Origin: Candidatus Hodarchaeota archaeon
Lineage (GTDB): Archaea; Asgardarchaeota; Heimdallarchaeia; Hodarchaeales; Hodarchaeaceae
DNA: 64,000 nt
NCBI GenBank assembly: GCA_029856365.1
Contig: JAHQWW010000006.1
Location: 21,555 to 85,554, forward strand
Reading direction: 5' to 3'
Positions 1,030 through 21,987 of the stretch are shown piece by piece; position 1 is the stretch's first letter, and the number at the start of each line of letters is the position of its first letter. The notes under the pieces are model-generated. The model saw only the letters and a program-made list of their open reading frames with translations, had not been told where the DNA came from and did no database searches. A program made the translations under genes and the position numbers.

Positions 1030-1712
1030 TCATTCTTTCACCTTAATCTGAACTAAATATTCTTAGGTTATTAAAATTGATAAAAATATATTCAATTTTT
1101 AATGTGGAACGACACTCTTAATAATATTTAATGTGTGGGGAGTAAAGAATTTAATATTGTTATCGTAAAATTTGGTAACCTAAGGAAGTGTAAGGAGTAA
1201 TATCCCAAAACAAATAGTAAAAAGAAACTTTAAATACCATAAAGCCTCTTTAGATATGTTTTTGTCCATTTTTATATCAAGCAAAAGGTTATGGTTAATA
1301 ACAATCGCTATTGTAGGAATAACATCCACTCAAACTACGATTAAAAGTATTTTAGTTTGAAATGGGCATTTTCATTATAAATAAAAAGGTCCTTCTAAAT
1401 CAGGTTGTATGTATAAAATTACAAAAAAGTTTAATGAAGTGTTTATTGATCTGATTCAGTCTTCTCCTCTTGAGTATGTTAACATTAATCAGCGTGGTTG
1501 ACATAAGAGAGTATAGTAGCTCATAGTTCTCTTCCTCTGAGTTACTAGCTCACAATATAATTTGAGAATCATTAACGTTAAAATACATAAGCATTTTCGC
1601 TTTAGTTAAGTAATTTTCATATTTCTTACCAACTCCTCTCCTGAAAAACCCATAAATCTTCTCTAAATTCTGTAACATGTTCTAGCTGTAAATATTGCTG
1701 GGAGACTATCTG

Positions 1713-5608: not shown

Positions 5609-5908
5609 ATGAAACAAGAATTGGAAAAAGCCATTAGCATGGCTGTAAGTACAGGGAAAGTGAAATTAGGGTATAATGCTGCAATTAAAAGCGTTTTAAG
5701 TGGTAAAGTTAAAGTAACAATAATTTCAGCCAACCTCCCATTAGATTCTAAAGATATTTTATTACGGAATTGCGAACTCTCACAGATACCTATTATACAA
5801 TATGAAAAAACTAGTTTCGATCTGGGTGCTGCATGTGGACGTCCCCATATGGTTTCTACAATAGCAATCTTAGATCCAGGAAATTCTAAAATACTGGATT
5901 ATCTATAA
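5609..5908 (+). CDS. rpl30e: 50S ribosomal protein eL30
   Basis: TGKVKLG, LGAACGRP, DPGNSKIL; canonical position after rpoA2. Confidence 0.95.
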   Translation: MKQELEKAISMAVSTGKVKLGYNAAIKSVLSGKVKVTIISANLPLDSKDILLRNCELSQIPIIQYEKTSFDLGAACGRPHMVSTIAILDPGNSKILDYL

Positions 5909-21162: not shown

Positions 21163-21447
21163 TTATTTTTGAGTATGTGACAACGAAAAAGGTTTACCTT
21201 CTGAAAGAACCTTAGTTGGTATCTTATCTTGATTAGATGAAAGAAATTTTAGATCTTCATCCTTATTTCTTAAATCATCTGGTAACATTACTGGTATTGT
21301 CCCTTTGATGGGATAATAACGATTACATTCCGAACAAACGATAAGACCAGTTTCAATTTCTGTTTCATCCTCTTTAAAGATGAATAATTCTAATTTAGGG
21401 TTTTTACAGATTGGACAGGCTAAGATTTCTAATAAGTTCTTTTTCAT
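21163..21447 (-). CDS. trm112: Trm112 methyltransferase activator
   Basis: LLEILACPIC...GLIVCSECNRYYPIKGTIPVML. Confidence 0.9.
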   Translation of the reverse strand: MKKNLLEILACPICKNPKLELFIFKEDETEIETGLIVCSECNRYYPIKGTIPVMLPDDLRNKDEDLKFLSSNQDKIPTKVLSEGKPFSLSHTQK

Positions 21448-21494
21448 TTATTTTCATCTCTTACTCTATATGAAACCTTAAAAATCAAAACAGT

Positions 21495-21564
21495 CACTTC
21501 AGACGGCTCTTCACGCGTTCATTGTTGTAACACAACTCATTCGGGGATAACATCATCATTAGTG
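21495..21564 (-). ncRNA. Box C/D methylation-guide sRNA targeting the 23S rRNA peptidyl-transferase centre
   Basis: Minus strand reads CACT-A-ATGATGA (C box)-TGTTATCCCCGA (guide)-ATGA (D')-GTTGT/ACAAC hairpin-ATGAACG (C')-GTGAAGAGCCGT (guide)-CTGA (D)-AGTG; 4-bp terminal stem; guides complementary to conserved GGGAUAACA and CGGCUCUUC. Confidence 0.85.
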
Positions 21565-21669: not shown

Positions 21670-21987
21670 TTAATAACTTACCGGATATACAAGCACAATA
21701 ACTCCTATAATCACAATCATAAGTAGACAAATAATGAACCATTCGCGAAAATATCGCTTTTGGACTACAGGATCCGAGGTTTTAGTCAACTGTGTCCGAA
21801 AATTCCATGTAATCAACAAAAGGATAGCTGTAAGAAATATAGGCATCAAATTCAGTACAGTATTGTCGAGAACACTCATATATAAGAATATAGCGATGAT
21901 TAAGATGAAACCATAGCCGATCAAAGAGATATCCAGCAATTTGACTGGTTTAGGAAGATTAAACCATCCTTCAAGATCAGAACTCAT
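21670..21987 (-). CDS. Small membrane protein (3 TM), unknown function
   Basis: Three hydrophobic segments; ATG start. Confidence 0.65.
   Translation of the reverse strand: MSSDLEGWFNLPKPVKLLDISLIGYGFILIIAIFLYMSVLDNTVLNLMPIFLTAILLLITWNFRTQLTKTSDPVVQKRYFREWFIICLLMIVIIGVIVLVYPVSY

Follow-up and report, generated by a model that had tools for sequence, protein, structure and literature searches.

Comparison with related genomes confirmed, at the level of sequence, a genuine and unannotated 71-nt double-guide box C/D sRNA of a Hodarchaeales (Asgard) archaeon, encoded on the minus strand at 21564-21494 of the window (the whole stretch of DNA analysed, 64 kb in length). The sRNA belongs, as an ordinary member, to the known class of archaeal box C/D methylation guides, and its most likely role is to direct the sugar methylation of two nucleotides in the catalytic centre of the ribosome. 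It adds a well-supported guide to the sparse ncRNA annotation of the Hodarchaeales, a lineage that is reportedly the one currently placed closest to eukaryotes. The sRNA predicts that two ribose methylations of the peptidyl-transferase centre (PTC) that are widespread in eukaryotes (Gm2815/Gm4392 and Cm4456) also occur in the Hodarchaeales, and such predicted sharing makes the continuity of rRNA modification across eukaryogenesis testable. The target pair itself is already known, having been published for Methanopyrus.

Box architecture, conservation and gene neighbourhood

Read 5' to 3' along the minus strand, on which all its parts lie, the 71-nt block opens with the 5' half of a 4-bp terminal stem (CACU, 21561-21564), followed by a single A and box C (AUGAUGA, 21553-21559). 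The 12-nt D' guide, UGUUAUCCCCGA (21541-21552), leads to box D' (AUGA, 21537-21540), and its N+5 nucleotide is the C at 21545, opposite 23S G2446 (E. coli numbering here and below). A 5-bp internal hairpin, GUUGU-GUU-ACAAC (21524-21536), separates D' from a degenerate box C' (AUGAACG, 21516-21522), which is preceded by one A. The 13-nt D spacer, CGU+GAAGAGCCGU (21503-21515), ends in the D guide core GAAGAGCCGU (21503-21512), whose N+5 nucleotide is the G at 21507, opposite 23S C2510. Box D (CUGA, 21499-21502), the 3' half of the terminal stem (AGUG, 21495-21498), which pairs with the CACU, and one A complete the block. Box C is thus near the 5' end and box D near the 3' end, with the terminal stem closing the molecule, and the guide spacers measure 12 nt (C-D') and 13 nt (C'-D), compared with the approximately 12 nt of the class. 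A complete C/D'/C'/D architecture with a terminal stem had been proposed for this site, and it was borne out. A search of both strands of the 64-kb window with a pattern of the box layout gave a single match, compared with 0.04 expected from 100 shuffles, indicating that the layout is unique in the window. In the ORF list of the window, no ORF of at least 40 aa overlapped the sRNA. The Rfam search at gathering thresholds gave no C/D family match, and minimum free energy folding was no better than for shuffles, as is usual for C/D RNAs.

When a 201-nt stretch was compared with 40 relatives by blastn, exactly 21494-21564 was aligned in congeneric genomes, at 82-91% identity, and the flanks stayed unaligned except where the alignment reached the start of trm112. 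The 71-nt block was present in about 19 congeneric genomes, the records of which are named Hodarchaeota or Heimdallarchaeota. A covariance model recovered the sRNA in 18 of 21 congeneric genomes as well as in the window's own, and across 83 genomes of the class it gave no match outside the genus. In an alignment of 17 sequences, the UGAUGA of box C, GUUAUCCCCG, the GA of D' (NNGA across the genus), the GUUG/CAAC stem, the UGA of C', GAAGAGCCGU, the CUGA of box D and a GUG were invariant. Variation was confined to the nucleotide beside each box, the first two letters of D', the 3-5 nt after C', which take in the 5' three nucleotides of the D spacer, the second half of C' and the hairpin loop, which varied in both sequence and length. 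Both helices were 97% paired across the 17 sequences; the terminal stem showed A-U/G-U variation, the internal stem had one compensatory change (U-A to G-C), and there were a few G·U changes. Since the helices are nearly invariant, co-variation within the genus is weak.

In one congeneric genome (G017), the sRNA occurs twice, as diverging copies on opposite strands with about 500 nt between them (L016:940-1012 (-) and 1491-1562 (+)). One copy has lost box C and the terminal stem; in the other, D' is preceded by an additional nucleotide that would displace N+5.

The sRNA sits in a 222-nt gap between two genes on the same strand. Upstream is a 105-aa membrane-protein ORF (orf105, 21670-21987), which has no Pfam match. 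The gene 46 nt downstream (21163-21447) matches Pfam Trm112p (46.7 bits, E 2.9e-12), so that the location just upstream of trm112, as originally predicted, held. Among the congeneric loci, trm112 was downstream of the sRNA in 16 of 16 and the order orf105-sRNA-trm112 was kept in 15 of 16, with the gap from the sRNA to the trm112 ATG ranging from 4 to ~50 nt. No conserved TATA-like element was found at a fixed upstream distance in these loci, and co-transcription with orf105-trm112 followed by trimming is plausible.

Pairing with 23S rRNA domain V and predicted function

The window's own assembly (83.6% complete) contains only the last ~300 nt of the 23S rRNA, without domain V, and a search of that genome for the target words returned only the sRNA antisense and one chance coding match. 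Pairing was therefore shown on congeners, using the 23S rRNA of G004 (contig 44, domain V) and G007 (contig 8, from A2450 onward), so that the full guide-1 site comes from a single genome, G004. Two other 23S copies were set aside as probably foreign: that of G005:C310 reads as bacterial, and that of G001:C57 differs from the genus in the sarcin-ricin region. The numbering was checked on E. coli rrlH at C2443, G2444-G2447, A2448, A2451, U2506 and C2510. Guide 1 formed 11 contiguous pairs (10 Watson-Crick and one G·U) with CGGGGGUAACA of the G004 23S, covering 2443-2453 and placing N+5 at G2446. Guide 2 formed nine contiguous Watson-Crick pairs with CGGCUCUUC of both the G004 and G007 23S (2507-2515), placing N+5 at C2510. 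Both guides thus have at least 9 bp of complementarity to congeneric rRNA with a Watson-Crick pair at N+5, and their best rRNA matches both lie in 23S domain V, 64 nt apart. Gm2446 and Cm2510, the sites that the original prediction had derived from the D+5 rule, agree with this count. Guide 2 had been read too long, as GUGAAGAGCCG aimed at CGGCUCUUCAC. The conserved D guide is GAAGAGCCGU, and the first two letters of GUGAAGAGCCG do not pair with congeneric 23S (CUCUUCCUA); because this 5' 'GU' belongs to the variable linker, the target is (U)CGGCUCUUC and not CGGCUCUUCAC.

The single G·U pair of guide 1 arises because the G004 23S has a G at position 2448. It is two pairs from the methylation site, and the guide U opposite is invariant nonetheless. 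The G at 2448 (GGGG(G)UAAC) was seen in G004 (L031:1530-1545) and also in another family of the class (L025:4040-4055), and all sRNA copies keep the U opposite G2448, a conserved G·U. In the alignment of Dennis 2015 (PMC4644070), position 2448 is A in E. coli and in five of the seven archaea, and N. equitans has G.

The best explanation, which we regard as probable, is that a trans-acting archaeal box C/D sRNA methylates 23S G2446 and C2510. L7Ae, Nop5 and fibrillarin would bind at two K-turns, a terminal one formed by C/D and an internal one formed by C'/D', and fibrillarin would 2'-O-methylate the two nucleotides according to the N+5 rule. The proteins are encoded in the host: the fibrillarin and Nop5 genes adjoin on contig 118 (PF01269, 263.6 bits, and PF01798, 218.8 bits), and two L7Ae-family genes are also present (PF01248, 96.1 bits). 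The second L7Ae-family gene is inside the window, at 5618-5896 on the plus strand (PF01248, 57.4 bits). The RNA itself would probably derive from an orf105-sRNA-trm112 transcript or from the trm112 leader and be trimmed to the RNP. The two target segments presumably flank helix 89 on either side in the PTC, as in the textbook 23S structure. A double guide would therefore clamp both sides, and holding both rRNA strands simultaneously may help to fold the region, which fits the rRNA chaperone idea for guide RNAs (reviewed by Breuer 2021 and Dennis 2015).

Judged by its boxes, the terminal C/D motif has the canonical form. Internally, the hairpin begins right after the invariant GA of D', as it would next to the non-bulged strand of a K-turn, and three nucleotides (N-A-U) on the 3' side of the hairpin are followed by the invariant GA of C'. 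From this layout (helix, three-nucleotide bulge, tandem G·A) we infer a true K-turn, closed by the GUUGU/ACAAC hairpin, instead of the K-loop that is the form in most compact archaeal sRNAs. The degenerate C', the NNGA of D' and the 13-nt C'-D spacer imply that the internal motif may be weak, and one of the two predicted methylations may be absent. An RNA in which only the C/D-side guide methylates, at C2510, and the D' guide just tethers or folds the rRNA would be in line with a C' reduced to UGA and a D' reduced to GA, with the G·U at 2448 in the one congeneric 23S and with the documented case of Pyrobaculum, where guides pair conservedly but no methylation follows (Lui 2018). However, tandem sheared pairs require GA dinucleotides, and these are invariant; the hairpin gives the K-turn a proper stem, the 12 nt between C and D' are the optimal spacing and the N+5 pair is Watson-Crick. 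We consider such a half-active guide rather unlikely.

A 16S target for guide 1 deserved attention because in Dennis 2015 guides resembling it, from N. equitans (sR03) and M. maripaludis (sR1), are assigned to the 16S GGGGAUAAC site (E. coli ~140), which bears the markers 'M1N3' in that alignment. Neither a GGGGAUAAC site nor a comparable one was present in three congeneric 16S sequences, one of which lies on the same contig as the sRNA of its genome. The best pairing there reached 7-9 Watson-Crick pairs interrupted by 2 mismatches, whereas the 23S gave 11 contiguous pairs; this target was rejected, and its chance of being correct is negligible. The strict orf105-sRNA-trm112 synteny, with just 4-50 nt between the sRNA and the trm112 ATG, raises another question, whether the element acts mainly in cis, as an L7Ae-binding K-turn of the trm112 leader through which the translation or processing of trm112 is controlled, and not as a guide in trans. 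L7Ae binding to mRNA K-turns is reported for archaea (PMC5539422). But a K-turn of this kind has no need for two invariant 10-nt stretches complementary to the PTC, and the distance to the ATG is not conserved, so a mainly cis-acting role appears very unlikely. Roles in cis and in trans are not mutually exclusive.

Archaeal and eukaryotic counterparts

The closest precedent for a single guide RNA predicted to target both G2446 and C2510 is Methanopyrus kandleri sR7 (MKAsR7), which was published by Su 2013 and Dennis 2015 (PMC4644070) with RNA-seq support. Like the Hodarchaeales sRNA, it is a double guide with the same order, the D' guide ..UAAUCCCCGG leading to G2446 and the D guide GGAGAGCCGG to C2510; these targets follow from counting N+5 by hand on the sR7 sequence and the 23S alignment published in Dennis 2015, where the marker 'K7' appears twice within the E. 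coli 2430-2520 block. Both RNAs therefore combine a D' guide for G2446 and a D guide for C2510. Unlike the Hodarchaeales sRNA, sR7 is GC-rich, has degenerate D boxes (CCGA/CGGA), contains one internal mismatch in the D' duplex, shows no clear D'-C' hairpin and belongs to another phylum. An RNA of this size is too short for homology and convergence to be told apart. Other archaeal PTC guides, namely N. equitans sR03/sR04, S. acidocaldarius sR7, I. hospitalis sR414 and T. tenax sR140, likewise have UUAUCCCCG- or AAGAGCC-type guides beside D or D'. They differ from the sRNA in carrying other second guides or a one-nucleotide shift (e.g., to G2509), and some of them have been assigned to 16S.

Scanning 185,579 species genomes for the exact pattern yielded 18 Asgard records bearing the names Candidatus Hodarchaeota, Hodarchaeum mangrovi or Heimdallarchaeota (B3_Heim, bin6, bin272 and others), together with five bacterial matches and two further copies. 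The five bacterial matches were without boxes and were discarded, with approximately eight expected by chance (an estimate). One further copy, in a 1.4-Mb uncultured, non-Asgard-looking archaeon, is compact and fully canonical, with 12-nt guides, a 3-nt K-loop and a consensus C'; a search of the order of this archaeon gave no additional copies. The other, in an Asgard MAG of another family (JAFGBX010000210), is GC-rich and has a different, longer internal hairpin at the same place. This MAG appears to be the family-f21 genome matched, with identical contig number and position, in a scan of 399 genomes of the phylum with a C-box-plus-guide pattern, in which 12 inspected loci outside the genus, with that genome as the exception, had no D'/C'/D boxes and looked like chance or coding matches. 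The MAGs behind two of the copies (L081 and L083, the latter judged to be the family-f21 genome) contained no rRNA. On the genomes scanned, the distribution of the PTC guide pair is patchy, as expected because archaeal guides turn over fast. Such scattered occurrence, in Methanopyrus and in an archaeon of small genome, speaks against any account specific to Asgard archaea. The sRNA is thus not Asgard-specific, since the same pair occurs in M. kandleri sR7 and in the 1.4-Mb non-Asgard-looking archaeon.

The two targets are sites methylated in eukaryotes, Gm2815/Gm4392 and Cm4456/Cm2880. In published tables, Arabidopsis Gm2816 equals human Gm4392, yeast Gm2815 and O. tauri Gm2647 (snR38/AtsnoR38Y), and Arabidopsis Cm2880 equals human Cm4456 and O. 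tauri Cm2711 (U49/SNORD49), with no yeast entry. Dictyostelium carries Gm3148 and Cm3212, the latter being the presumed C2510-equivalent site from its 64-nt offset. The spacing of the two sites is 64 nt in human, Arabidopsis, Ostreococcus, Dictyostelium and E. coli. The mapping to yeast Gm2815 (snR38) and human Cm4456 (U49/SNORD49), as originally proposed, was therefore right according to these tables and the constant spacing.

Resemblance of the guides to those of snR38 and U49 is forced because the targets are shared. The snR38/snoR38/SNORD1A-C snoRNAs (RF00213) have a 5' (D') guide, GUUAUCCC.., in the same register to the D' box and with the same target nucleotide as the sRNA, whereas they are single guides without a C2510 guide and show no similarity outside the boxes and guide. 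The Rfam snoR38 model scored the sRNA at 17.9 bits (E 1.1), below the gathering threshold of 45 bits, and aligned only the boxes and guide. U49/SNORD49A/B and AtU49 share the target of the D guide (human Cm4456, Arabidopsis Cm2880, O. tauri Cm2711), but they are separate single-target snoRNAs, and yeast is without Cm methylation at this site. The SNORD49 covariance model was absent among the matches at E <= 10 for a 121-nt stretch. Direct orthology would make the sRNA the archaeal counterpart of both snR38/SNORD1 and U49/SNORD49: the two PTC methylations and their guide would come from the Asgard ancestor, the double guide would have split later into two single-guide snoRNAs, and the C'/D' motif with its K-turn and hairpin would be an intermediate on the way to the eukaryotic form. 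We judge this to be unlikely. Ancestry of the two eukaryotic snoRNAs, as originally suggested, is possible and unsupported, given the same pair in M. kandleri sR7 and the snoR38 score of 17.9 against 45 bits. The suggestion of a degenerate C' and a 5-bp D'-C' hairpin was correct as description, but its reading as a eukaryote-like trait is not supported: such hairpins are not eukaryote-specific, because short hairpins between D' and C' also appear in M. kandleri sR5, sR46 and sR48 in the list of Dennis 2015.

Insertions and 3'-end copies of the 23S rRNA

Several 23S genes contained insertions. In another family of the Heimdall group, a ~390-nt insert lies between U2449 and A2450, within the guide-1 target (L025:4056-4449), and the congeneric contig G007:C8 ends precisely at this U2449/A2450 junction (L088:1628). 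Were this insert an intron, only spliced rRNA would be open to pairing with the guide. The G004 23S contains a 44-nt insert in the loop of helix 89, flanked by GUGUAGA/UCUACAC (L031:1570-1613), and that of G007 a ~380-nt insert after GGGAACGUGA (E. coli ~2580; L088:1300-1500).

Many genomes of the genus also carry stand-alone ~300-nt copies of the 23S 3' end (Rfam model positions 2721-2973, starting just before the sarcin-ricin loop); the loci concerned include G000:C184:257-566 and, on G007:C8, 27759-28068, 46367-46669 and 53937-54756. In G007, two such copies share the orientation of the genuine 3' part of the 23S and follow it at distances of ~7 and 26 kb. They bracket islands that contain an AbiEi/AbiEii pair, Ras-family GTPases, a Kelch protein and a methyltransferase. 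This arrangement could mark integration into the rRNA 3' end, but the 7-kb island showed no integrase.
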